Part shown: positions 2,202 to 50,758 of the stretch, piece after piece
Numbering within the stretch: position 1 is the first letter of the stretch
Layout: every line of letters begins with the position of its first letter
NCBI GenBank assembly: GCA_000004695.1
Contig: CM000150.2
Location: 4,448,001 to 4,512,000, forward strand
DNA length: 64,000 bases
Reading direction: 5' to 3'
From: Dictyostelium discoideum
Taxonomy: Eukaryota
Made by a program: the position numbers and the translations under genes
The notes under the pieces: generated by a model
What the model was told of the DNA's origin: nothing
The model's database searches: none
What the model saw: only the letters and a program-made list of their open reading frames with translations

Positions 2202-2306
<105 letters not shown>

Positions 2307-2849
2307 TAATAACAGTTATTGTGATATTTGAAAATTATTATTAAATGAATATTATTTTAATTATTTTTATATTTAAATAAAAATTAAAATTTTAATACTA
2401 TAATAGGATTGTTATTATTAAAATAATATTAATTTATGGATGGATGTGGTTGAGGAATATATTTATCAATCACAAAACAAAACAAAAAAAAAAAAAAAAA
2501 AAAAAACTTAAACAAAAATAAATAAAAAAAAAAAAAGTTTTTTATAATTTTTAATTTTTTGATTTAAAAAAATATAAAATAATATGATAGGCAGTATCTA
2601 TTTTTCTTTTTTTTTTTTTTTTTCAATAAATCGATTTAGTGGGTGGGTGTGTGTTGAAACAAGTAAAAAAAGGAACAAAAATTTAGTTAAAGAAAAAAAT
2701 GTGTGAAAGTGTGTTAATGGACAAAACGAAAAAAAAAATGATTAAATAAAAAAAATAAAAAAATAAAAAAATAAAAAAAAATTAAATAAAATAAAATATA
2801 ATAAAATAAATGAATAAGATTAAAAATATTAAATGAATTATTTAAAAAT

Positions 2850-3080
2850 CCACACACACATACACACACCTTTCCTCCACCTCACCACTCCTTATTAATT
2901 TTTAAATGATAATAATTAATACATAATCACTAGTATAATCATAATTACTATTACTTATTAATATTGGTAGTATTTGTGTTAAAATATTATAGTGGTTGTG
3001 GTGTGTGAGTGGGTGTGTGTGTGTGGGTGTGTGGGTGTGTGTGTGTATGTGTTTGTTTTGTTGTGGTGGAGGATGAAACC
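2850..3080. promoter_or_regulatory. Inverted pair of CA-rich and GT-rich elements flanking about 110 bp of AT-rich spacer. Resembles Dictyostelium G-box/CAE (GBF-type) regulatory elements.
   Basis: 2850-2895 reads ccacacacacatacacacacc...cctccacctcaccactcc. 2996-3075 reads gtggttgtggtgtgtgagtgggtgtgtgtgtgtgggtgtgtgggtgtgtgtgtgtatgtg...gtggtggagg, approximately the reverse complement. These GC-containing islands stand out from the surrounding >90% AT DNA. G-rich/CA-rich boxes are established cis-elements of Dictyostelium developmental promoters. Calling it a promoter element here is inference. Confidence 0.3.
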
Positions 3081-3992
3081 CCCGCAAGGTATTAATTATA
3101 AACAAAATAGAATTTCAACAAGAATATTTTTTTTGATCTATTGATGGTCATTACAGGGAAATTTTATTCCTACATTTGGTTATTATTATTATTATTAATG
3201 TGAAAAGGGGTTGAGTGGGATATAATTTTTTTTATTTTTTTTTTTTTTTTGTGATTTTTTAAATTTTGGAAACTGGTAAAAACATTAATGAAAGATGATG
3301 TTGTTTATTTTTATTATTATCATTATTATTATTAACGTCATTTATTTCTATTAATTATTATATTATATTATTATATTAAACTTTAGTATTATTTAATAAT
3401 AATTACCATGTACATTTAAACATTTAAAAAAAATAATAATAATAATAATAGTGTGTGTGGTAAATAATAAAAATAAAATAAAATAAATAAAAATCCTCTG
3501 ATGATTCAAAGGGTTTGAAGAGTAATTATTTCCAATGTAATCGTAATAATCATAATTTATTAAAGCGACAAAACACAAAAAAGGAATAAAAAAAAATAAA
3601 AAAAAATTAAAATACAAAATTATTGTGATTTTTTTTTGTTGATTAATTGTGATTGATTGATTGATAAATAATTGATTGTGAACGATTAATTAATTAATTA
3701 TTAGGATTTAGGGTAATAAATCCTTTTTTTTTTTTTTTTTTAATTAAAATAAAAATAAAAATAAAAAAAAAATAAAAAAATAAAAAAATTTGAAATAATT
3801 AAATTTGGTTATATTCTATTTCCTAAACTTTCCATTAAACCTATAATTATAAAAATAAAATACATTTTTTTTTTTTTTTTTAAAAAAAACATACCTATAA
3901 TATTGAATATTCATTTTTTTTTTTTTTTTTTTTTTTTTTGAATAAGTAATTTAATATTTTTTGAGGATTGAATAATGTTTGTATTTATATAA

Positions 3993-4023
<31 letters not shown>

Positions 4024-4536
4024 ATTTTAATTATTTAATTAGTAATAGTACAGAGGATAAGTATTTTAGTTGAAGGGGATTTTTTTTTTTTTTTTTTGTT
4101 ATTTTATTTTATAGAGATTAAATTTATTGGGGCTAAATGAATTTTATTTTTTTTTTTTTTATTTTTTTTTATTTTTTTTATTTTTTTAATTTATAGTTTT
4201 TATAAATTATCAATCTTTAAGAATTGAAATGATTGCAAAAATGTAATAACAATACAAAAAATATGATTACTGATGTTGATGAAAAAATCTAAAATATATA
4301 AAAAAAAAAAAATAATAATAAAATTAAAAATTAAAATATGAAAAAAAAAAAAAAAAATAAAAATAAAAATAATAATTATATATATATAAAAATTAAAAAT
4401 AATAAAAACAATTTTAATGATTTGATAATTAAAATAATGAAAAAATTAATTAAAAGATGAAGGTAAAAAAAAAAAAAAAAAATAAAACAATTTTAATGTA
4501 TATTAATTTGTGTGTGGGTTTTAATTATTATTATTA

Positions 4537-7278: not shown

Positions 7279-8370
7279 ATCAAGGTATTATTTTTATTGA
7301 ATACCCTAACGCAAAAGAATAGTTTTTTCCAATTACCCACTTAAATTTGTTAAAAAATTTAAAAATTATTATTAGTTGACATGCTCTGTAATATAAAATA
7401 AACTTATTTTTAAGTTAATACACTCATTTACATAAATAATTACCAAACCAACCATTAAACAAATAAAATAAATAAATATTTTTATTTTTCATTGGTCATT
7501 TTTTAAAACCCTATTATTAAATAGTTTATCAACTATTAGATTTTATGACGAGCTTGCGTGGTTATTTATTAGATTTTTTTTTTTTCCAAAAAAAAATAAA
7601 AAAAAAAACAACCACAAACCAAAAAAAAAAAAAAAAATAATAATAATAATTATAATAATAATAAAAATAATAATAATACTATTAAATGACAATAGGGGAA
7701 AAAAAAATATTGCAGTTATTGTTGTTTATTATTTATCTTTCACACCATCATTAAATTTTATGAAAAAAAAAATGAATAAAAATGATATAAATGGTCCTAT
7801 CGATAATTTTAAAAATTAAGTTTTTTTTTATCCTATTTTTCTATTTTAAGATAATTAGATAGAAAATGGTAAAAACGATTTTTTTTTTTTTTTTTTTTTA
7901 AAACAGTTTTTTTTTTTTTTTAAACTATTATTTAATCTTTCGTTTTATTAAAAAAACAATATTAATTGGATAAATAATTATATAATTACAATGCATTATT
8001 ATAAAATTAAAGTTTTAAAAACTAAAAAATAGTAGTAAAATAAAAATAATAATGATGCTAAAGAAAGAGAAAAAAAAAAAAAAAAAGCATTTATTAAAAT
8101 TTGAGATGTTATAATATCGAACAATCAAAAAAAAAAAATTTTAATTTAATTAAAGGAATTCTAAATTTCCTTCTTAAAAAAATAGAGTTTAAAAGGAATT
8201 CTAAATTTCCTTTTTAAAAAAAAGTAAATTTGGAAAAAAAAAAATATATATAATAGGTATATTTTTATTTTTATTTTTTTTATTTTTTTATTTTTTTATT
8301 TTTTTTTTATTTTTTTTAAAAAAAAAAAAAAAAATTTTGAAATTTAATATAAAATAAAAAAAACAACACG

Positions 8371-8760
8371 ATGAACATAAAAAATATATTAAACAAAGGA
8401 ATATTTATTGTACCAATAACTGTTGCCATTCATAATTATCTATTTACAATATATGTTGACAAAGGAGAGAAAAAAATAAATAACAATAGTAATAATAATA
8501 GTAATAATAATAATAGTAATAATAATAATAATGATGATATACATTTAAACCCATCAAAAAGATATGAAATGATAACAGCTGATAAAAATGGGGAAATCTT
8601 ATCAATATCAACTTCAACTTCAACTAACAATAACAAACACAGTTTACAAAAAGCAAATATAGATAAAACTTTTAAAATATTATTAATAAATAAATTCTCT
8701 AAAAACTATAAACACAATGATATAGTAACAATAATGTATGTGAAAGTTTTGTTTTTTATT

Positions 8761-8798
<38 letters not shown>

Positions 8799-9089
8799 AA
8801 TAATAAATAATAAATGAAAAAAAAAAAATAATAATGTTTTATTAAAACTCTACCTTAATGAAATAGAGATCCAGATAACCCAAATAATACATTAGTTAAA
8901 AAAGTTTTAGCTACAGGTAACGAATTTATACCATTTCCACCTTATACAAATGGCATTCAAGATGGTTTCTTTGTGTATTCTGAACCAACTGTTGATGGAT
9001 TACCAAAAATAGCAGGTCCCATTCCAATTGGATTTATAACAGGAAAGGTGATAACCAATTTATACCCTAATAAATTAAATATTGTATAA
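8371..9089 (+). CDS. Two-exon gene: exon 1 8371..8735, intron 8736..8866 (GTATGT...AAATAG, phase 2), exon 2 8867..9089 (TAA at 9087-9089). About 196 aa. N-terminal hydrophobic anchor followed by a poly-N linker. Product unknown.
   Basis: ATG at 8371 in an AAAATG context. Exon 1 encodes MNIKNILNKGIFIVPITVAIHNYLFTIYV, a transmembrane/signal-anchor-like segment. Consensus Dictyostelium donor gtatgt at 8736. Acceptor aaatag at 8861-8866 restores a clean frame giving ...HNDIVTIIDPDNPNNTLVKKVLATGNEFIPFPPYTNGIQDGFFVYSEPTVDGLPKIAGPIPIGFITGKVITNLYPNKLNIV*. Exon 2 composition is clearly coding, not AT-junk. Confidence 0.55.
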
Positions 9090-9295
9090 AAAAAAAAAAA
9101 AAATGCAAAGAAAAAGGTTTTGAAAATTAAAAAAATTGGAAAATCAAAAAAAAAAAAAAAAAAAAAAAACACGAAACAATAAACAGAAACGTCAACCGAA
9201 TTTTTTTTTTAATAAATATCTTGCTTATTTAACAACATTTTTTTAATTTTTTGATTTTTTTTTTTTTATGATTTTTCTTAATATTATTTTAATTT

Positions 9296-9327
<32 letters not shown>

Positions 9328-9456
9328 CTTTCTTTCCATTTGAAATATAAAAATTAACAATACACAAATAACATCTTTTTTCTAAATTTATTTTTGGTTT
9401 TTATTTTATTTTTTTTTTTTTCCAGAAAAAAAATAAAATAAAATAATTAAATAAAA

Positions 9457-11763
<2,307 letters not shown>

Positions 11764-38596: not shown

Positions 38597-41500
38597 TTAT
38601 CTTCTTGGTTTTCTTGTTATATAAACAAATGTAATAACCATAAGAGTATTAAATATCCAGAAACAAATAATAAGAGCTAAATTTCTCCATCTATTATCAA
38701 ATGACCAACCAAGTGTATTATAATATTCTTCACCATTGTTGTAAAGACAATAACCACATTTACTTTCATCACCTTCATTTATTGCTTCAACATAACCTGT
38801 TAATGGTTCTGAAATTGGGAAATATTGTTTACATGTCACACCATTTACAGCTTCTGGATTTGTAAAATGAGTGAAATCTTCTGATGTACACTTTACATCG
38901 GTATGTTTTAATACATTTGTAACAATACCTTCCATAAAGTAACGACATGGGTTTAAATGATACACCCATCCTCTCCAAAAGGTTGGAATTGACGATGGTA
39001 TTACCATTACTCCACAGAAAAGAAATAGGAAAACAATTAACAATGGAATGAGTGTATGTGCTAAAAACATGTTGAAACAAATTGCAGCTACAGCTTGACC
39101 GAAACTAACACAGAAATAGAGGAATAAAATGAAAATGAACCAAAAATAAAAATTAATATCATTGTATTCCGTATTTAAACCAGCTGTCCAAAAAGAGCAA
39201 AAGAAGAAAATTGTACCTGAAACTGTAATGAATGGTAATTCTACAACCACAATGGAAATTGCAAATGGGAACCAAGAATAAAATTTCGAAGCAAAATCTC
39301 TTTTAAAGTATTCTTTTTGCATAATGAATTGTGGAAGTACAACGAAAATTAATAAGATTCCAAGAATGAGTGCTTCAAAAATAAAGAATACACGTTGATT
39401 CATATCTGAACTTGATCCTTGTAATGACCAAAAAGTAAAACCAATAATTAAACCTGCAAGAGCTGATTGAATGAATGAACCATACGTATAGAATGGATCT
39501 CTCCACCAAATTAAATTTAAACGTTTATAAACTTCAATAGTTTGATACCATACTGATGTTGCAAATTCTCTAGGTTTACCATGGTCCTCGGTTGATGATG
39601 GTCCTGCTGCTTCCAATGCTGCTAATTCACGCTCAATCTCTTGTAATTCTGGTGATTGTTTCCAAGTTTCTGGCCAATTAACATCACTTTTACCATGTAC
39701 ACCTGCACCAGTTGCTTCTAAAATATATTCTGCTGGATTTTCACTTTCAGTACATGGACGAACACCATATCTTTCGAAATAAGATGTTAAAGTTTTTGAT
39801 CTTTCACCAATATCACCAAAGTAAACAGTTTTACCACCTTTTGCTAATAAAAGAATACGATCAAAATGTTCAAATAATACTGAAGAAGGTTGATGAATTG
39901 TACAAACTAATGGCATACCAGCATCTGCTAATTTACGAATAAATTTAACAATGTTATATGATGATTGAGCATCTAAACCTGATGTTGGTTCATCAAGGAA
40001 AAGAATATGTGGTTTTGCAACCAATTCTACACCAATTGTTAATCTTTTTCTTTCTTCAACGGAAATACCAACACCAGTTTCTAATGTACCAATTAAAGCA
40101 TCACCTAAATGTTTCATTTCCATCATTTCTAAAACATGTTCAACATAATCAAACTTTTCTTCTAATGAAACTGAAGGTTCTTGACGTAACTTTGCAGAGA
40201 AACGTAATGCTTCTCTTACGGTTAAACCTGGATTATGAACATCCATTTGTTCTACATAACCGGTAATACGTTCAAAATCAATTTCTAATGGTTTACCATT
40301 AAGGAAACATTTACCTTGAACTTCACCCATTGTTTTTCTTTTTGCTAATACATCGAGTAATGTTGTTTTACCAGCACCTGATGAACCCATTAATGCTGTC
40401 ATTTGACCTGGTTTAATCCAACCTTCAACATTATCTAATAGTAATCTTTTTCCACCTTTTACTGGTACAGTATAATTAATATTTTGCCAAGTGAAAATAC
40501 CACCTCTCATTTTTAAAGTATCTTTCATTTTACTTGTAGCATTTGCAACTATTTGATTTTGTTTCTTTTCTTCCTCAGCATCATTCATTTTTGGAGCTTT
40601 ACCTTTTTTATAAACTTTATGACTATAACCTCCACCAGTCCAATCGAAATATTCCATTGCAAACATATTCATAGCGGTAAATAGTACCCACCAAAGATAA
40701 GTGATGAAAACATTTTGAGTAAGATCATCTGATCTAAAGTGTAAATACTGATCCAAATAATCTTTACCTTCAACACTTAAAATACCTTCAACAGCACCAG
40801 GCGATGCACAAACTCTATAATCATTGTCGTATCTTGTAGGATTTTTTGGATCAAATGGAATTGCTGTATCATGACAATCAAATGATAAATCACCAAATTC
40901 ATTTGCCATAAGTGCTTTAAAAGCATAACTGAACGGATTTGCCCAATAAAACCAAGCAAACCATGGATGCATTTTTGGTTTTGGAATTGTATAACCACAA
41001 TATGTAATCATAAAGATAAGAATTACATTCATTACATTTTGACTAATGTAAAGTGATGGTGAGAAATTACCAAAGACACGGAAAAGATTTGTTGTTGCCA
41101 ATGTTGCACCTACTAATGTAAAACAGAAAATAAAGAATTTCCCAGCATTATATTGTAAACCAAACATAAAGTAAACTACAATTGAGAATAAAAATACTTG
41201 TATCATCGTTAAGGGTATATCAGTTACAATTTGTGCAATATGTAAAGCTGATGGACGATACATAGCGTAAGAACGTTGCTTTTGTAAAATACGACGACCA
41301 TACATAGTAAGTGGTAGTTCGGCTTCACTAAGGAAAGCATTGAATAGAATAGCTGAAAATATAGCACCACCTCTTGTAAATAAACCAGGAATTGTTTTTT
41401 CCATTTGAAAGAAAATTGAACCATAAACAAATGATTGAGTAAATACTGAAAGATAACGTGAAATCAATGAGAATTTATCACCCCAAATAATTTGAGAATT

Positions 41501-43085
41501 TCTAACGATTAATGCTTTGACTTGAGTTATATATGAAGTTGTATAAATTGATCTCTTTGGTGTAGTTCTACTTTTTTCAGCTTTAACTTCTTGAATGAAA
41601 TCAACTGCTGGTTGTTCAATTTCAATCTTTCTTTCATATTCTTTTTGTTCCTCTAACATATCTCTATACATTGAAGAGTTTCTCCAAGCAGCTTCAAAAT
41701 CGGCAGAAGTTTCTGGAACACGACCTTCAAATCCTTGTCTAATAATACGTTCTTGTGGATTTGTAACACCTGTCAAAAAATCTGGTGTTGATTTTCTTGG
41801 TTCGCAATCGAATCCTAAATCTATAAAATATTGTTTTGCTTTATTGCCAGGTCCAAAATAAATTAATCTACCTTTTTCAATGATTGCGACATTATCAAAT
41901 AAATTATAGATTGAATCTGATGCTTGATAAAATGATGCGATTGTTGTCTTATCTAATGTATCTGACATGATACGAATTGATTTTGCATAATCTAATGCAC
42001 TTGCTGCATCAAGACCACGAGTTGAACAATCATAACATGTAATTGATGCTGATGATACCATTGCTTCTGTAATTGTTAATCTTTTACGTTCACCACCTGA
42101 TAAACCTCTAATAAATTCATTACCAACAATCTTAAAAAAAAAAATAATTAATATCAATTAATAAATTAATTTTATTAAAAACTAAATACTTACAGTATCA
42201 GCTTGATGAACAATACCAAACATTCCTAATAATAAATCAAATATTTTTTGTCTATATGTACGTTTCTTTTCATCTGGCAAACGATTATGAATTGTTTTGC
42301 ATTTTAATGCGAAATCTAAAGTCTGACGAACTGTTAAAGTTGGATGATGAGTATCCTCTTCTGGTGTATAAATTGATTCACCTTGATAACGTTTCCATTC
42401 TTTCGCTGGGATACCACCATATTTAATATCACCTTTAACTTCAACATATGATCCTCTTTGATTTGATATTAAACGCAATAATGTCTATTGTAGTGAAAAT
42501 AAACATTATTAATATTATTTCTAAAAAATATATAAACACATATAAATTTATAATATTTACCGAACAACCAGAACCAGGACGACCTAATACTAATAACATT
42601 CCACCATCTCTATTGAATAAAGTAATATCATGAAGAATATCAAAAGTACTACCTTTCTCTTTCCAAGTTGATGGTTTAAACAAATTGAAAAAACTAATGA
42701 ATGGAGTTGACATATCGGCAATGACGGATTGATCAGCACCTCTACCAACAACTGTTAAATTTCTAATTGAAACACCCATTTTCTTTGGTTTTTGACCATT
42801 TCCTAATGCCATACGTTGAGAATTTTCAAAGTATCTTCTTAATTTAAAATCTTCATCATTTTCATCATGATTATTTTCAGCATCATGACCTGCCAAATAT
42901 TGTTTTGAATCGATTTCCAATTCTCTTTCGACATTTTTAAATTGATTTTCACTCTTTTGAATATCTGGTGAATCTGGTGGTGATGATCCATCACCAACAG
43001 GATTATCATAATTTGGAGGTGTATTAATATCTAAATTACTCCCACCTTCTTGAAGAGCAATTTCTCTTAATTCATATTCTTCCAT
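38597..43085 (-). CDS. Full-size ABC transporter, G subfamily / PDR type (NBD-TMD-NBD-TMD), copy 1. Exons: 43085..42561 (ATG at 43085, phase 0 end), 42484..42194, 42130..38597 (stop included). Introns: 42560..42485 (GTAAAT...CAATAG) and 42193..42131 (GTAAGT...TTTAAG). 1449 aa.
   Basis: Exon 1 ends ...[11 protein letters not shown] then gtaaat. This is the PDR-type degenerate Walker A with Cys in place of Lys. Exon 2 reads [30 protein letters not shown]...GIVHQADT then gtaagt. Exon 3 begins [24 protein letters not shown] (ABC signature), continues through TMD1, NBD2 ([53 protein letters not shown]) and TMD2 with PDR-like extracellular Cys motifs. The listed ORFs 42441..43085, 42182..42478 and 38597..42157 are the three exons. 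Their M starts at 42478 and 42157 are alternative-start artifacts of the ORF caller. Confidence 0.85.
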
Positions 43086-43751
43086 TATATTTGTATATAT
43101 GGAAAAATAATGAATTTAAATTTAATCTTTATTTTTTTTTTTTCTTAAATTTATAAAAAAAAAAAAAAAATATAATTAAAATACAGAGATATATAAATAA
43201 TAATATAATAAATACAGAGATATATAAATAATAAAAAAAAAAAAAAAAAAAGTTAGTATTTAAATTTTTAAACAGAAAAAAAATAAAAAAATAAAAAAAT
43301 AAAATTAATTAAATATTAAAATTTAGATTAACAATGTTGTTATATATAAACATAAATCGAAATTTTGTTTTTAAGTGATGCAATTTAGCGAAGTAAAGAA
43401 TCATATTATTTTTTTTATTAAAAAAATGGGGTGTATTTGTGTGGGTAAAGAATAAATTAGAACAATAAGAATGTGGGGGTAATGGTGTTAAAAAGCAAAT
43501 TATATTTTTATTATTTTTATTATTTTTATTTTTATTTTTATTATTATTATTTATATTATTTTTATTACTATTATTGTTGCAATTAAAAAAATAAAAATAA
43601 AATTGTATAGATAATTTTACATTTAATTGACTTTTAATTTTACTTTAATCCAAAAATATTTTAATTTTACTTTAATCCAAAAATATTTTAGAATAATTAA
43701 TTATATGTATATATTAAATTTAATTTAATGAAAAAAAAAAAAAAAAAAAAA

Positions 43752-43990
43752 AAAAAAAGATAAAGTAAAATAATTTATAGTAATTTTATTTTTCTAAAAA
43801 AAAAAAAAAAGATTAAAAATGAAAATTCGAAAAAATTATTAATATATTATAAATATTTTTTTTATTTATATGATTAATGTTGGCGCATTCAATCGTTCAA
43901 AAACTAATCTAAAAGTCCAAATTTGGTTCGGAAAAGTCCCTATTTTAATAAACAATCAAAAATCCACTTTTAGAAATTTATTTTAAAATG
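43752..43990. repeat. Left arm of a roughly 240-bp inverted repeat. Partner is at 44689-44925.
   Basis: The reverse complement of 43865-43990 (cattttaaaataaatttctaaaagtggatttttgattgtttattaaaatagggacttttccgaaccaaatttggacttttagattagtttttgaacgattgaatgcgccaacattaatcatataaa) matches 44689-44815 (cattttaaaataaatttctaaaaatggattttgattgtttattaaaatagggacttttccaaaacaaaatttggacttttatattaacttttgaaagattgaatacaccaacattaatcatataaa) at about 90%. The similarity continues outward (atatattaataattttttcgaattttc versus atatattaataattttttggaattttc, and aaattactataaat...attttact on both sides). Confidence 0.8.
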
Positions 43991-44586
43991 TTGTAATGAG
44001 ATGGTTTTTTTAAAAAAAATAAAATAAATAATTAAAATTAATTGGAAATCGCTATCAAGATGTCATTTAGAAGCTTTTTTTTTCAGATCCAAAATTAATT
44101 TAATTAAAAATATTTAAAAAAAAAATAAAAAAAAATAAAAAAAAATTAAAAAAAAAAAAATAAAAAAGAAAAAATAAAAAATAATAAAAAAAAAAATTAA
44201 AAAAAAATAAAATTAAAAATAATAAAATTAAATTTAATAAAATTTGGAAAAACGATGTTGCAATAGATGAGGCTCATTAATGACACTATAACCTTATTCC
44301 AAAAAATAAATAACCCCACAGTTATTTTTTTGTATTTTTTTTTTTTTTTTTTATTTTAAAATTGAATCATAAAATATTATTTAGAACCATTCTGAATAAT
44401 TCTTTTTTATTTGAATACCTGGTGTTTAAGAAAAAAAATAAAAAAAAATAAAAAAAAAAGTAAAATGGGAAAATAATTTGATTGGAAAAAAAAAAAATAA
44501 AAAAATTTAATAAAAAGGTTATTTTTTTTTTATTGTTATTTAATATTTTTATTAATTTTATTTTTTATATTATTATTATTATTATT

Positions 44587-44680
44587 TTTTCCATCTGTTT
44601 TCAAATGACCAACCAAGTGTATACTGTGGTGAAGAATATTATAATCCCCATTGTTGTAAGACAATAACCACATCTCATTA
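44587..44680 (-). pseudogene. About 95-bp degenerate fragment of the 3' terminal exon of an abcG/PDR gene. It corresponds to the ...RWRNLA.. region near the stop and abuts the right inverted-repeat arm.
   Basis: ccatctgttttcaaatgaccaaccaagtgtat...ccccattgttgtaagacaataaccacat matches copy 1 at 38690-38770 (ccatctattatcaaatgaccaaccaagtgtattataatattcttcaccattgttgtaaagacaataaccacat). A 20-nt internal segment is inverted (gtggtgaagaatattataat). There is no open frame and the rest of the gene is absent. Confidence 0.6.
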
Positions 44681-44688
44681 GGACATTT

Positions 44689-44925
44689 TAAAATAAATTT
44701 CTAAAAATGGATTTTGATTGTTTATTAAAATAGGGACTTTTCCAAAACAAAATTTGGACTTTTATATTAACTTTTGAAAGATTGAATACACCAACATTAA
44801 TCATATAAATAAAAAAAAAAAAAAAAAATCTGAAATATATTAATAATTTTTTGGAATTTTCTTTTTTGATCTTTTTTTTATATTTTAAAATTAAATTACT
44901 ATAAATATTTTACTAATTTTTAAAG
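44689..44925. repeat. Right arm of the roughly 240-bp inverted repeat. Partner is at 43752-43990.
   Basis: See the left-arm evidence. The arms face each other across a spacer of about 700 bp that is mostly A/T homopolymers, plus the abcG fragment. Confidence 0.8.
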
Positions 44926-45231
44926 GTCAATAAAATGATTAATAGGTACCTTATTACATAATTATATTTCAAATTGTTCTACTAAAATGACATATGGCGT
45001 TGATGATTAATAAAAACTTCAATTATTTTCGAACATCATTCCAACAAATCATTTTTATAGTAGGAATTTTGAAAAAAAAAAAAAATAATAAACAATAAAC
45101 AATAAACAATAAAATTAATATATTTTTTTTTATTGTTAAATATTATTATTAATTTTATTTTATTGTTTATAATTATTATTTATTTATTTATTTTTTATTT
45201 ATTTTTTATTTATTTTTTTTTGGTTGAGATT

Positions 45232-48200
45232 TTATCTTCTTGGTTTTCTTGTTATATAAACAAATGTAATAACCATAAGAATATTAAATATCCAGAAACA
45301 TATTAAAATAGCTAAATTTCTCCATCTATTATCAAATGACCAACCAAGTGTATTATAATATTCTTCACCATTGTTGTAAAGACAATAACCACATTTACTT
45401 TCATCACCTTCATTTATTGCTTCAACATAACCTGTTAATGGTTCTGAAATTGGGAAATATTGTTTACATGTTACACCATTTACAGCTTCTGGATTTGTAA
45501 AATGAGTAAAATCTTCTGATGTACACTTTACATCGGTATGTTTTAATACATTTGTAACAATACCTTCCATAAAGTAACGACATGGGTTTAAATGATACAC
45601 CCATCCTCTCCAAAAGGTTGGAATTGACGATGGTATTACCATTACTCCACAGAAAAGAAATAGGAAAACAATTAACAATGGAATGAGTGTATGAGCTAAA
45701 AACTAAATTTTTTTTTTTTTTTTAAATGATTAATATTAATTTTTTTTTTTTTTTTTTTTTAATAAATAAAATGAGTCTTACCAAATTAAAACTAATTGCA
45801 GATACTGCTTGACCAAAGCTAACACAAAATAAAAGACTATAAAAAAATTTATAAAGATATCTAATTAGTAATTTCCTTTTTTTTTTTTTTTTTTTTTAAC
45901 AACCTACTATAAAATTAAAATAAACCAAAAATAAAAATTGATTTCATTAAATTTAGTATATAAACCAGCTGTCCAAAAAGAACAAAAGAAAAAAAAAGTA
46001 CCAGATATTATTACAATTGGTATCTCCACTGCAACTATTGAAATTGCAAATGGAAACCAAGAATAAAATTTTGATGCAAAATCTCTCTTAAAGTATTCCT
46101 GTTGCATAATGAATTGTGGAAGTACAACGAAAATTAACAAAATTCCAAGAATGAGTGTTTCGAAAATAAAGAATACACGTTGACTCATATCTGAACTTGA
46201 TCCTTTTAATGACCAAAAAGTAAAACCCATTATCAAACCTGCCATTGAAGCTTGAATGAATGAACCATACGTATAGAATGGATCTCTCCACCAAATTATA
46301 TTTAAACGTTTATAAACTTCAATAGTTTGATACCATATTGGTGTTGCAAATTCTCTTGGTTTACCATGGTCTTCAGTCGATGATGGTCCTTGTGCTTCCA
46401 ATGCTGCTAATTCACGCTCAATCTCTTGTAATTCTGGTGATTGTTTCCAAGTTTCTGACCAATTAACATCACTTTTACCATGTACACCTGCACCAGTTGC
46501 TTCTAAAATATATTCTGCTGGATTTTCACTTTCAGTACATGGACGAACACCATATCTTTCGAAATAAGATGTTAAAGTTTTTGACCCTTCACCAATATCA
46601 CCAAAATAAACAGTTTTACCACCTTTTGCTAATAAAAGAATACGATCAAAATGTTCAAATAATACTGAAGAAGGTTGATGAATTGTACAAACTAATGGCA
46701 TACCAGCATCTGCTAATTTACGAATAAATTTAACAATGTTATATGATGATTGAGCATCTAAACCTGATGTTGGTTCATCAAGGAAAAGAATATGTGGTTT
46801 TGCAACCAATTCTACACCAATTGTTAATCTTTTTCTTTCTTCAACGGAAATACCAACACCAGTTTCTAATGTACCAATTAAAGCATCACCTAAATGTTTC
46901 ATTTCCATCATTTCTAAAACATGTTCAACATAATCAAACTTTTCTTCTAATAAAACTGAAGGTTCTTGACGTAATTTTGCAGAGAAACGTAATGCTTCTC
47001 TCACGGTTAAACCTGGATTATGAACATCCATTTGTTCTACATAACCGGTAATACGTTCAAAATCAATTTCTAATGGTTTACCATTAAGGAAACATTTACC
47101 TTGAACTTCACCCATTGTTTTTCTTTTTGCTAATACATCGAGTAATGTTGTTTTACCAGCACCTGATGAACCCATTAATGCTGTCATTTGACCTGGTTTA
47201 ATCCAACCTTCAACATTATCTAATAGTAATCTTTTTCCACCTTTTACTGGTACAGTATAATTAATATTTTGCCAAGTGAAAATACCACCTCTCATTTTTA
47301 AAGTATCTTTCATTTTACTTGTAGCATTTGCAACTATTTGATTTTGTTTCTTTTCTTCCTCAACATCATTCATTTTTGGAGCTTTACCTTTTTTATAAAC
47401 TTTATGACTATAACCTCCACCAGTCCAATCGAAATATTCCATTGCGAACATATTTAAAACAATGTAAAGTATCCACCAAAGATAAAGTATAAAAACATTT
47501 TGAGTAAGATCGTCTGATCTAAAGTGGAATGACTCTTCAATATATTTAGAACCTGATACTGTTAAATTTCCCATTGATGCACCAGGAGATGCACAAATTC
47601 TATAACTATTATCATATACTATAATTTTATTTGGATCAGATGGAATTGCTGTATCTTGACAATCGAATGATAAATCACCAAATTCATTTGCCATAAGTGC
47701 TTTAAATGCATAACTAAATGGATTACACCTATAAAAAAAGAAAAAAAAAAAAAAAAATTATTAATATATATTCCTTAAATTTTAATAAAATTATTTTAAT
47801 TAAAAAAACTTACCAATAAAACCAAGAAAACCATGGATGCATTTTTGGTTTTGGAATTGTATAACCAGTGTATGTAATCATAGAAATGATGAAGATATTC
47901 ATTACATTTTGACTAATGTAAAGTGATGGTGAGAAATTACCAAACATACGGAAAAGATTTGTTGTTGCCAATGTTGCACCTACTAATGTAAAACAGAAAA
48001 TGAAGAATTTTCCAGCATCGTATTGTAAACCAAACATAAAGTAAACCACAATTGAGAATAAGAATACTTGAATAATCGTTAAGGGTATATCAGTAACAAT
48101 TTGTGCAATATGTAAAGCTGATGGACGATACATAGCGTAAGAATGTTGCTTTTGTAAAATACCCCTTTGTCCGAAAGTTAAAGGCATTTCGCATTCGCAT

Positions 48201-50057
48201 AAAAGAGCATTGAATAGAATAACTGAAAAAAGAGTACCACCTCTTGTAAATAAACCATTAATATTTGTTTCTAAATTATAAAATATTGAGCCATAAACAA
48301 ATGATTGAGTAAATACTGATAGGTATCTAGAGCCTAATGATAATTTATCACCCCAAATAATTTGGAAATTTCTAACGATTAACGCTTTAACTTGAGTTAA
48401 AAATGAAGTTGTATAAATTGATCTCTTTGAAGTGGTTTTACTTTTTTCGGCTTTAACTTCTTGAATGAAATCAACTGCTGGTTGTTCAATTTCAATCTTT
48501 CTTTCATATTCTTTTTGTTCCTCTAACATATCTCTATACATTGAAGAGTTTCTCCAAGCAGCTTCGAAATCGGCGAAAGTTTCTGGAACACGACCTTCAA
48601 ATCCTTGTCTAATAATACGTTCTTGTGGATTTGTAACACCTGTCAAAAAATCTGGTGTTGACTTTCTTGGTTCACAATCGAATCCTAAATCTATAAAATA
48701 TTGTTTTGCTTTATTGCCAGGTCCAAAATAAATTAATCTACCTTTTTCAATGACTGCAACATTATCAAATAAATTATAAATTGAATCTGATGCTTGATAA
48801 AATGATGCAATTGTAGTCTTATCCAATGTATCTGACATGATTCGAATTGATTTTGCATAATCTAATGCACTTGCTGCATCAAGACCACGAGTTGAACAAT
48901 CATAACATGTAATTGATGCCGAAGATACCATTGCTTCTGTAATTGTTAATCTTTTACGTTCACCACCTGATAAACCTCTAATAAATTCATTACCAACAAT
49001 CTAAATAATTTTTAAATATTAAAAAATAATATCAATTAATAAATTAACCAATATTATTATTATTATTAAAAACTTACAGTATCAGCTTGATGAACAATAC
49101 CAAACATTCCTAATAATAAATCAAATATTCTTTTTCTATATGTACGCTTTTTTTCATCTGGTAAACGATTATGAATTGTTTTACATTTTAATGCGAAATC
49201 TAAAGTCTGACGAACTGTTAAAGTTGGATGATGAGTATCCTCTTCTGGTGTATAAATTGATTCACCTTGATAACGTTTCCATTCTTTTGCTGGAATACCA
49301 CCATATGTAATATCACCTTTAACTTCAACATATGATCCTCTTTGATTTGAAATTAAACGTAATAATGTCTATAAAATTAAAAAAAAAATTATTAATATTA
49401 TTTTTATTACTAAAAAAAAAAAAAAATTAAAAAAAAAAAATTAAAATAGTTTACCGAGCAACCAGAACCAGGACGACCTAATACTAATAACATTCCACCA
49501 TCTCTGTTGAATAAAGTAATATCATGAAGAATATCAAAAGTACTACCTTTCTCTTTCCAAGTTGATGGTTTAAATAAATTTAAAATTTTAAATATTGGTG
49601 TTGATAAATCTGAAATTACAGATTGATCAGCACCGACACCCACGACTGTTAAATTTCTAACTGAAACACCCATTTTCTTTGGTTTTTGACCATTACCTAT
49701 TTTTTAATAAATTTTAAAAATTAATATTTTTAAAAAAAAATAAAAAAATAATATAATATTAACCATCAACTCACCTAATGCCACACGTTGAGAATTTTCA
49801 AAATATTTTCTTAATTTAAAATCTTCATCATTTTCATTATGATTATTTTCAGCATCTAAATTTGATAAATATTGTTTTGAATCAGTTTCTAATTCATTGG
49901 CAATATATTTAAATTGATTTTCACTATTTTGGATATCTGGTGAATTTAATTGGAAATCATCACCAACCACACCAAAATTATTATTATTATTTGGTGTATT
50001 AATATTTAAATTTTCAACTTCCTGGAAAGAATACTCATTTAATTCAAATTCTTTCAT
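45232..50057 (-). CDS. Full-size ABCG/PDR transporter, copy 2, a tandem paralogue of copy 1. Seven exons: 50057..49775, 49696..49455, 49368..49078, 49000..47814, 47728..45908, 45836..45782, 45702..45232 (stop included). 1449 aa, the same length as copy 1.
   Basis: Donors and acceptors read off the sequence. (1) ...NSQRVALG then gtgagt...aaaaatag, then GT-AATGGTCAAAAACCAAAG, phase 1. (2) ...GRPGSGCS then gtaaac...ttttatag, then ACATTATTACGT ([11 protein letters not shown]...). (3) ...GIVHQADT then gtaagt...ttatttag, then ATTGTTGGTAATGAA. (4) ...[10 protein letters not shown] then gtaagt...ttttttatag, then G-TGTAATCCATTTAGT ([18 protein letters not shown]), phase 2. (5) ...[11 protein letters not shown] then gtaggt...ttttttatag, then T-CTTTTATTTTGTGTTAGC ([19 protein letters not shown]). 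(6) ...AATTTG then gtaaga...aaatttag, then TTTTTAGCTCATACACTC ([15 protein letters not shown]...). Exon lengths sum to 4350 nt, the same as copy 1. Exons 1+2 together equal copy-1 exon 1 (525 nt). The listed ORFs 49704..50057, 49410..49673, 47810..48931, 45907..47694 and 45232..45678 are exon pieces. Confidence 0.8.
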
Positions 50058-50758
50058 TTTTTTTTTTTTTTATTTTTAATTTTTTAATATTTGATTAAAA
50101 GAAAAAAAAAAAAAAAAAAAAGATAAGAGGTTTTCTAAAAATAGTTAGTATTTATAGTTTTATTATTATTTTTTTTTTTTTTTTTTTTTTTCACTTACAA
50201 TTTTTTTAATAATTTTTTTTTTTTTTAAAGATAAAAAAAGAAAAAAGTTTTTATTAATAACCACTTATTTTTCATTTATTAAGTTTAGCTTTTATACCAA
50301 AAAAAAAATAAAAAAAAAAAAATAATAAAAAATAATAAAAATAAAAAAATAAAATAAAATAATGAAAATAATAAAAAAGCCATTATAAAATTTTATAATG
50401 ACTCACTATCCAAATATGGTAAAAGCAAATACTTTATAAAGACATTGCACGGTTTGAAAACAATCAAAAAAAAAAAAAATTTAAAGCCAACACCAATTTT
50501 TTATTTTTTTATTTTTTTTTTATTTTTGAAACGTTTCAAAGACACTAGAACGTTATTTTGTTCCGTTACTGATTATAAAAATAAATTGATTGAAAATAAA
50601 ATTTTGTAAGGACCCTTAACTTGACAAATTTAGAAGGAGTGATTGCCAAATACAATCAAGTTACACAAAAAATTTTAAAAATCAATTGTGATTGCATATT
50701 TATTTTTACGAGAACAATAAAGAATAACGGAACGGAATGAATTTAGTTTAAGACCAAA

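Follow-up and report, generated by a model that had tools for sequence, protein, structure and literature searches.

Concerted evolution of the tandem PDR transporter genes abcG19 and abcG21 in Dictyostelium, and four introns present in abcG19 orthologues only

We analysed a stretch of 64,000 nucleotides (nt) of Dictyostelium discoideum AX4 DNA (contig CM000150.2, positions 4,448,001 to 4,512,000; hereafter the window, the numbering of which is used for all AX4 coordinates), with an emphasis on two neighbouring genes for ABC transporters of the PDR/ABCG family, abcG21 and abcG19. We conclude with great confidence that these genes constitute an old tandem pair that evolves in concert. Their near-identity is the result of recurrent interlocus gene conversion, which took place independently in at least two lineages, and the true divergence of the paralogues is carried by those islands that escape conversion. 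The two genes also differ by four introns that are found in abcG19 only and that are very probably lineage-specific gains, made after the split from D. purpureum.

The window is AT-rich Dictyostelium DNA and contains two long ABC-transporter reading frames on the minus strand, to which all gene, intron and tract coordinates below refer. Both gene models were rebuilt from the raw sequence and the resulting proteins were then compared by exact-sequence look-up. The gene abcG21 (copy 1, 38597-43085) comprises three exons (43085-42561, 42484-42194 and 42130-38597) and abcG19 (copy 2, 45232-50057) comprises seven (50057-49775, 49696-49455, 49368-49078, 49000-47814, 47728-45908, 45836-45782 and 45702-45232). 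The coding sequence (CDS) is 4350 nt long in each case and specifies 1449 amino acids (aa) plus the stop. The models match the public AX4 proteins abcG21 (Q8T673/XP_646646) and abcG19 (Q8T675/XP_646647) exactly, and the 3-versus-7 exon structures are therefore already part of the public annotation. All eight introns have GT..AG ends, a length of 63-86 nt and a GC content of 5-14%; the two of abcG21 measure 76 and 63 nt and are both in phase 0, and the six of abcG19 measure 71-86 nt and span the same range of GC content.

An earlier reading of the letters and their open reading frames (ORFs), made without database searches (the sequence-only reading), had described the locus as tandem full-size PDR/ABCG paralogues of 1449 aa that lie about 2.1 kb apart and have different exon numbers, and this description proved correct: the spacer measures 2146 bp (43086-45231), and the rebuilt models, the Pfam content and the identity to the public proteins agree with the rest. 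The same holds for its finer points: the two shared introns follow GRPGSGCS and GIVHQADT at matching positions and both in phase 0; the junction it quoted reads AACATGTTTTTAGCACATACACTC at 39073 in copy 1 and AATTTG, intron, TTTTTAGCTCATACACTC in copy 2; and 3 of the 76 residues, as well as 3 nt, differ between the antisense ORFs 39712-39942 and 46497-46727.

Both proteins carry the Pfam domains ABC_trans_N, ABC_tran (two copies), ABC2_membrane (two copies) and PDR_CDR. The nucleotide-binding domains (NBD) and transmembrane domains (TMD) follow each other as NBD1-TMD1-NBD2-TMD2 within one polypeptide, with TMD1 at aa 474-684 and NBD2 at aa 837-989 according to Pfam. The PDR-specific modules PF14510 (E ~1e-9) and PF06422 (E 1e-26 to 1e-27) were recovered in both, all above the gathering score, as were the Walker A motifs GRPGSGCS and GSSGAGKT and the signature motifs LSGGERKR and VEERKR. 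Yeast Pdr5 and Candida Cdr1 are full-size PDR (ABCG) transporters, and abcG19 and abcG21 match transporters of that type in domain order and in the presence of ABC_trans_N and PDR_CDR, without a relevant difference. By their domain content the two proteins are ordinary full-size members of the PDR/ABCG family, for which export is the predicted activity.

The ungapped CDS alignment of abcG19 and abcG21 shows 91.7% nt and 89.4% aa identity, and the differences are strongly clumped. Along the alignment the nt identity is 98-100% at aa 801-1100 and 1301-1400 and only 64-90% at aa 1-150, 451-550, 701-750 and 1151-1300. The AX4 copies share identical runs of 360, 345, 185 and 162 nt. When an equal number of differences was placed at random (20,000 placements), the longest run obtained was 190 nt, which is exceeded by the first two, and the 99.9th percentile was 143 nt, which is exceeded by the other two; at third-codon positions alone runs of 147 and 122 were found against a random maximum of 99. 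The mosaic divergence proposed in the sequence-only reading and its identity figures were thus reproduced, except that the N-termini, which it had called unrelated, are diverged homologues: the first 40-50 aa are 40% identical (64% at the nt level) and the homology is clear from MEEYEL/MKEFEL and L(D/N)INTP.

We then fetched the orthologous loci and located all introns exactly by aligning each annotated protein with its own DNA; the species compared were D. discoideum, D. citrinum, D. dimigraforme, D. firmibasis, D. purpureum, P. violaceum and C. fasciculata. The same tandem pair occurs in D. firmibasis (locus L001) in a matching gene neighbourhood, where the upstream copy has six introns at the exact positions and phases of abcG19 and the downstream copy has only the two shared ones. 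A second assembly labelled D. discoideum, GCA_054859355.1 (L010), also has the pair with the same 6-versus-2 intron layout. Its synonymous divergence (dS) from AX4 is ~0.10 in both genes and its flanking proteins are 91-95% identical to those of AX4; this is large for one species and may reflect a cryptic lineage. At the syntenic position D. citrinum and D. dimigraforme carry only one gene, with two introns, and tblastn recovered no abcG19 remnant at 8146-10001 of the D. citrinum locus (L002) or at 7921-10001 of the D. dimigraforme locus (L004). This single gene is of the abcG21 type over its whole length and is therefore not a chimera produced by unequal crossover. By the identity of the flanking genes D. 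firmibasis is the farthest from AX4 among D. firmibasis, D. citrinum, D. dimigraforme and GCA_054859355.1. Since it nevertheless has the pair, the pair is ancestral to the group, and D. citrinum and D. dimigraforme have lost abcG19. This loss is notable beside the strong phenotype that has been reported for an AX4 strain targeted at abcG19 (see below). The D. purpureum orthologue, 155206, has five introns, namely the two shared ones (one displaced by 1 nt) and three others.

Low- and high-identity segments of the codon alignment were analysed separately by neighbour-joining with bootstrap. The low-identity segments group the genes by orthology: one clade (100%) unites the abcG19 genes of AX4, D. 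firmibasis and the second assembly, another (95%) unites the abcG21-type genes, among them the single gene found in D. citrinum and that in D. dimigraforme, and D. purpureum 155206 is placed outside either clade (100%). The high-identity segments give the opposite topology, in which each genome's own paralogues pair up (100% for the AX4 pair and 100% for the D. firmibasis pair). Third-position distances measured within strict orthology blocks amount to 0.40-0.47 for the paralogues and to 0.29-0.32 for the orthologues of D. discoideum and D. firmibasis, and the distance to D. purpureum is 0.56-0.78. From these distances and the segment trees it follows that the duplication took place before the split of D. 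discoideum and D. firmibasis and after the split from D. purpureum.

These results overturn two elements of the sequence-only reading. The duplication is not recent, as both the pair and the 6-versus-2 layout are present in D. firmibasis and in the second assembly and the orthologue clades in unconverted segments are recovered at 95-100%; and the intron difference is not a polymorphism, since the same layout in these two genomes shows it to be old and fixed. One could still imagine a recent duplication in which the divergent patches result from fast adaptive evolution or relaxed constraint and not from age. Several hundred bases are indeed 100% identical, and the ratio of nonsynonymous to synonymous divergence (dN/dS) is raised in the divergent patches (0.31, against 0.08-0.17 elsewhere). 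Nevertheless, such a history is very improbable given that D. firmibasis has the pair and its intron layout in common with AX4, that the sites with an orthology pattern include 33 third-codon positions, that the third-position distance between paralogues exceeds that between orthologues, and that the trees support the orthologue clades.

That the near-identity is due to conversion is apparent from the quartet site patterns of the AX4 and D. firmibasis pairs. We counted 240 sites with the concerted pattern, 93 with the orthology pattern and 7 with the third possible pattern; they form long blocks that alternate along the alignment, and at third positions 179 of the 217 informative sites are concerted. 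Within the converted segments dS amounts to 0.064 between the two AX4 genes and to 0.023 between the two D. firmibasis genes, compared with 0.37 between orthologues. The homogenisation thus reaches synonymous sites and cannot merely reflect purifying selection. The shared introns keep a recognisable homology, from which it follows that the exchanges occurred at the DNA level.

Three conversion blocks stand out. The first covers the linker and NBD2 (abcG19 46270-47443, CDS nt 2289-3462; abcG21 39485-40658) with 83 consecutive concerted sites and no orthology sites, and includes both the 360-nt identical run (abcG19 47003-47362; abcG21 40218-40577) and the 345-nt run (abcG19 46607-46951; abcG21 39822-40166). 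The second covers NBD1 (abcG19 48443-49629, CDS nt 351-1374, across both shared introns; abcG21 41573-42735) with 59 consecutive concerted sites, and its nt identity is 96-98% within AX4 versus 87-95% between orthologues. The third is C-terminal (abcG19 45310-45693, CDS nt 3889-4272; abcG21 38675-39058), holds the 185- and 162-nt identical runs, and has 51 consecutive concerted sites, from which it follows that the D. discoideum and D. firmibasis lineages were homogenised separately. The homogenisation of NBD2 by conversion, already suggested from the sequence of the window, is therefore borne out and extends to NBD1 and the C-terminal part. In each genome conversion keeps about two thirds of the CDS nearly identical, namely NBD1, the linker with NBD2 and the last ~150 codons. 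The islands that escape are the N-terminal extension, parts of TMD1, the PDR_CDR extracellular loop and TMD2, and within them abcG19 is the faster-evolving copy. An import of the divergent abcG19 segments, with their introns, from another PDR paralogue was considered and rejected, as their best non-abcG19 matches among 131 proteins were all abcG21 orthologues. The database protein AbcG13 (Q8T680/AAL91498.1) is of the abcG21 type at aa 1-133, of the abcG19 type at aa 196-790 and again of the abcG21 type at aa 927-1449; it is a chimera of both genes, probably an early artefact of assembly or prediction that arose from the identical tracts.

Concerted evolution by interlocus conversion is classically known from the primate gamma-globin genes and from yeast or Drosophila duplicates. 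Like those, abcG19 and abcG21 are closer to each other within a genome than to their orthologues, also at synonymous sites, in mosaic tracts with sharp edges; functionally diverged segments escape, and the homogenisation occurred independently per lineage. Unlike those, the two genes differ by four intron indels that have survived conversion since before the split of D. discoideum and D. firmibasis, and in two species the edge of a tract falls at an intron indel.

Two introns are common to both genes. Shared intron A, the second of abcG19 (abcG19 49369-49454, 86 nt; abcG21 42485-42560, 76 nt; phase 0, after GRPGSGCS), shows 80% identity over the aligned bases with the common core AAATAATATTAATAAT, and its position was found in all 9 D. 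discoideum-group genes examined, including the paralogue Dcit_6639. The GRPGxGCS intron of both D. purpureum genes (L003 10654-10721 and L006 2439-2521) is annotated 1 nt upstream and in phase 2 instead of phase 0, by either intron sliding or a choice of annotation. Shared intron B, the third of abcG19 (abcG19 49001-49077, 77 nt; abcG21 42131-42193, 63 nt; phase 0, after GIVHQADT), has an identical 20-nt core, TTAATTTATTAATTGATATT, and is ancient, as it occurs in 14 of 19 genes (13 of the 16 that were aligned and D. purpureum 148081), including P. violaceum.

The four other introns of abcG19 are: intron 1 (49697-49774; 78 nt, phase 1, after CDS nt 283, RVAL/G; GTGAGT..ATAG), intron 4 (47729-47813; 85 nt, phase 2, after CDS nt 2003, inside the W codon of WFYW/C), intron 5 (45837-45907; 71 nt, phase 2, after CDS nt 3824, with an A21 run) and intron 6 (45703-45781; 79 nt, phase 0, after CDS nt 3879, SFNL/FLAH), the last at the 5' edge of the C-terminal tract. 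Introns 4 to 6 lie in conversion-escaping islands (intron 6 at the edge of one) and intron 1 lies in a mixed stretch. Among the 16 aligned genes these four positions were found in the three abcG19 orthologues only, and they were also missing from three further genes. The 14 non-abcG19 genes that lack them are five abcG21 orthologues, the D. purpureum orthologue and eight further PDR genes, and in all 14 the sequence is continuous codon for codon across all four sites. Truly old intron positions of the family recur in several paralogues (alignment columns 172, 211, 308 and 387). Beside introns 5 and 6 the exon bases of abcG19 are derived (e.g. ATG to TTG, at a Met that is invariant in all other genes), and at both junctions abcG21 has the D. 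purpureum state.

Some features of the introns vary between genomes. Introns 5 and 6 have long poly(A) runs on the sense strand (A21 in AX4, up to A32 in D. firmibasis) and the other introns are T-rich. Changes in microsatellite length account for a 345-nt intron 2 in D. firmibasis, by (ATT)n, and for an expanded intron 3 in L010, by (ATA)n; intron 6 of L010 is enlarged by an internal duplication of ~38 nt.

The four introns are predicted to be spliced because they have canonical GT..AG ends, occupy conserved positions, vary freely in length and are followed by exons that evolve under purifying selection. The seven-exon ORF of abcG19 was recovered in three independent assemblies with conserved exon lengths and six conserved intron positions, and across these assemblies the abcG19-only introns measure 78/73/70, 85/76/86, 71/74/77 and 79/117/88 nt, with differences that are not multiples of three. 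Read-through of unspliced intron 1 would run into an in-frame stop, and the other five introns would shift the frame since their lengths are not multiples of three. Between AX4 and D. firmibasis the dN/dS of abcG19 is 0.13. The view that copy 2 is a pseudogene, which the sequence-only reading had named as a possible outcome, or that its extra introns are artefacts of annotation or assembly, could appeal to AbcG13 as a sign that the locus is prone to assembly error. It is barely credible, however, in the face of an ORF and six intron positions maintained in three genomes, of the low dN/dS, of frames that would break without splicing, and of the developmental phenotype of an abcG19-targeted strain: this AX4 strain fails to develop normally (PMC3743828), with the reservation that its knock-out arm primers do not tell the two genes apart.

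The primers for the knock-out arms in that study (PMC3743828, Table S1) match abcG19 and abcG21 exactly and only the diagnostic primers are specific for abcG19; the primer matches lie at window positions 40225 and 47010, 38983 and 45618, and 46184 and 46138. The genotype of the mutant at abcG21 may deserve a check. The gene abcG21 has been reported to be induced by hyperosmotic stress (PMC1888708). Upstream of the abcG19 ATG there is a possible intron in the 5' untranslated region (~50134-50198, minus strand), with GTAAGTGA, a TACTAAC motif that resembles a branch point, and TTTTTAG ~75 nt before the start codon.

The sequence-only reading had left open whether introns were gained in copy 2 or lost from copy 1, and had proposed a comparison of intron positions with dictyostelid orthologues. 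Made here, this comparison favours a gain in the abcG19 lineage, because the four positions are missing from 14 other dictyostelid PDR genes, including the D. purpureum orthologue, which predates the duplication; the positions are unique to abcG19 orthologues, and a loss from abcG21 is disfavoured only. The four introns would have been inserted into abcG19 after the duplication and before the split of D. firmibasis, and abcG21 would have kept the ancestral two-intron structure. The intron difference would then be as old as the divergence of the paralogues and the four introns private to the abcG19 lineage. Insertion into abcG19 after the duplication, and not loss from abcG21, is the most parsimonious history, and we consider it somewhat more probable than all others together, its direction and timing being deduced from the distribution of the positions.

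A third history, in which the four introns are ancient introns of the PDR family that were lost independently in every other sampled lineage, may draw on the fact that this family often loses introns: an ancient phase-2 intron before a conserved W (column 172) was kept in six genes and lost in the abcG19/21 group. It is quite improbable all the same, as old positions recur in several paralogues whereas the four of abcG19 are found in none of the 14 other genes, and about five or more parallel losses would be needed for each of four introns.

No source was found for the four introns. A blastn-short comparison of all eight introns with the 64-kb window gave just matches of A/T runs, and the only real intron homology in the window is that between the shared introns of abcG19 and abcG21. 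Local alignment to 150 nt of flanking exon revealed no likeness beyond the poly(A) runs, and an origin by tandem duplication of the flanking exon was rejected since significant scores came solely from the A21 runs in introns 5 and 6. An introner-like or transposon origin found no support within the window either: the four introns resemble neither each other nor the rest of the window beyond A/T runs. Short direct repeats at the copy-2-specific borders, expected by the sequence-only reading for some mechanisms of gain, did not turn up convincingly: the in-register repeat of donor and acceptor is 5-6 nt (TAG/GT) at intron 1 and 0-3 nt at introns 4 to 6, which is not clearly different from 45 control introns (control maximum 4), and TTTTATAGT, found at both ends of intron 5, was discarded as a direct repeat because it is out of register by 1 nt. 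The insertion was precise and neither added to nor removed from the CDS (4350 nt in both genes), and since no codons are missing, intronisation of coding sequence is excluded.

Ma et al. (2015; PMC4683709, which is meant wherever Ma et al. are cited) describe 40 putative intron gains in D. discoideum genome-wide, derived from orthologue sets of five genomes that include Entamoeba, and in the part of their table considered here each D. discoideum gene has one gained intron; the abcG19 intron coordinates are not found in their tables. The introns of abcG19 are like those gains in that they are missing in D. purpureum and more distant dictyostelids, were inserted precisely, and lack a source or flanking repeats. 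They are unlike them in that four positions occur in one gene, are dated by a duplication, and are accompanied by an intron-less sister 2 kb away. The same source relates the view of Logsdon et al. that an intron gain is to be accepted on a clear phylogeny, with the intron absent from outgroups, and on an identified source element. The four positions are missing from the sampled outgroup genes; the second element is lacking here because no source sequence occurs in the window.

This last point belongs to a series of observations that weigh against an insertion into abcG19 after the duplication: i) there is neither a source nor, beyond the 5-6 nt TAG/GT at intron 1, a direct repeat at the junctions; ii) the stem branch of abcG19 is short (see the third-position distances above), so that four gains on it amount to a burst; iii) the polarity is read from 14 other genes, with the PDR paralogues of AX4 sampled in part and no species that branches between D. 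purpureum and D. firmibasis; iv) the splicing of the abcG19 introns is itself a prediction drawn from their conservation; v) intron loss in D. discoideum is about ten times commoner than gain (441 vs 40) and tends to take adjacent 3' introns together (Ma et al.); and vi) the absence of introns 4 to 6 from abcG21 fits exactly this pattern of adjacent 3' loss.

The latter points are the strength of the most serious competing history, in which the four introns were gained in the single-copy ancestor after the D. purpureum split and abcG21 lost them by recombination with reverse-transcribed mRNA, in one event for the adjacent 3' introns 4 to 6 and in another for intron 1, with introns 2 and 3 spared. 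The excess, 3' bias and adjacency of intron losses in D. discoideum all agree with it (Ma et al.), and with respect to these introns abcG21, which lacks three adjacent ones at its 3' end and keeps 5' ones, resembles the reverse-transcriptase-mediated losses reported there. A precise loss that leaves no footprint also fits the perfect codon continuity of abcG21, and the stem that precedes the duplication is about as long as, or longer than, that of abcG19. Even so, we regard it as unlikely, although it carries real weight. It needs the same four gains and at least two extra losses, and one 3'-primed cDNA does not account for the absence of the 5'-most intron beside the retention of introns 2 and 3; at junctions 5 and 6 abcG21 has the bases of the intron-less D. 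purpureum gene and abcG19 the derived ones; all five abcG21 orthologues are without all four introns; and, unlike in the reported losses, no outgroup shows that the ancestor of abcG21 had these introns.

Returning to insertion into abcG19, the position of the introns relative to the conversion tracts is of interest. In AX4 and D. firmibasis all four abcG19-only junctions have a difference between the paralogues within 2 nt (three of four in the second assembly), which is the case for just 22-28% of random junctions; the enrichment is of modest significance, with a P of ~0.01-0.02 when introns 5 and 6 are taken as one cluster. The C-terminal identical run begins at CDS nt 3889 in AX4; its counterpart in D. 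firmibasis begins at nt 3878. With intron 6 located after nt 3879, the tract edge is within 10 nt of this intron in both species. Likewise, an identical run of D. firmibasis (nt 517-800) is bounded by the two shared introns. These observations suggest that intron indels, or diverged intron sequence generally, end conversion tracts; alternatively, tracts that would carry an intron across may not have been retained. As a counterpoint, sites with the concerted pattern flank intron 1 at -25 and +22, and conversion therefore acted close to that site without transferring the intron. A tentative scenario, in which we place somewhat less than even trust, is that a burst of four introns entered abcG19 after the duplication and that the resulting ~80-bp indels then served as barriers or end-points of tracts, helping the genes to keep distinct membrane domains beside shared ATPase domains.

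The genes and their models were already known; what is new is their evolutionary interpretation, as one more case of processes that are themselves known. Our literature search, which did not cover Anjard & Loomis 2002 (PMC117992), found no published account of gene conversion or intron differences for abcG19/abcG21. Well-dated intron gains beside an intron-less sister copy are scarce, and here a single gene would hold four, with a duplication and two speciation events to delimit their age. This makes the locus usable to time gain versus loss of introns in dictyostelids and offers a natural setting in which to ask if conversion tracts halt at intron indels. The pair also illustrates that the near-identity of tandem genes in Dictyostelium can come from conversion and not from youth, which affects the dating of duplications, read mapping, assembly (the AbcG13 chimera) and gene targeting (abcG19 arm primers that match abcG21).

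Finally, we inspected the flanks and the intergenic spacer. The 300 bp 5' and 3' of both genes gave no alignment to each other beyond low complexity, and scans of the spacer and the window for Rfam families and tRNAs yielded nothing. Within the spacer, a stretch of 89 nt (44586-44673) is 79% identical to, and in the same orientation as, the 3' coding region of the genes (38682-38759 and 45317-45394) and is a relic of ABCG coding sequence; the other genomes showed no such stretch in their spacers. The spacer also contains an inverted repeat of 220 nt (43792-44003 and 44671-44890) with arms that are 86% identical and 667 bp apart; the other four genomes have one arm only, and the second is present just in AX4 among the five, as an inverted duplication. 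A non-coding block upstream of abcG21 (window 43792-44600) is conserved over 350-800 bp at 74-88% identity across five genomes, with counterparts at L010 13045-13793, L001 8795-9283, L002 8705-9268 and L004 8825-9191. Such conservation is unusual for the AT-rich intergenic DNA of Dictyostelium, and the block may be a promoter, a regulatory element or an unannotated RNA.

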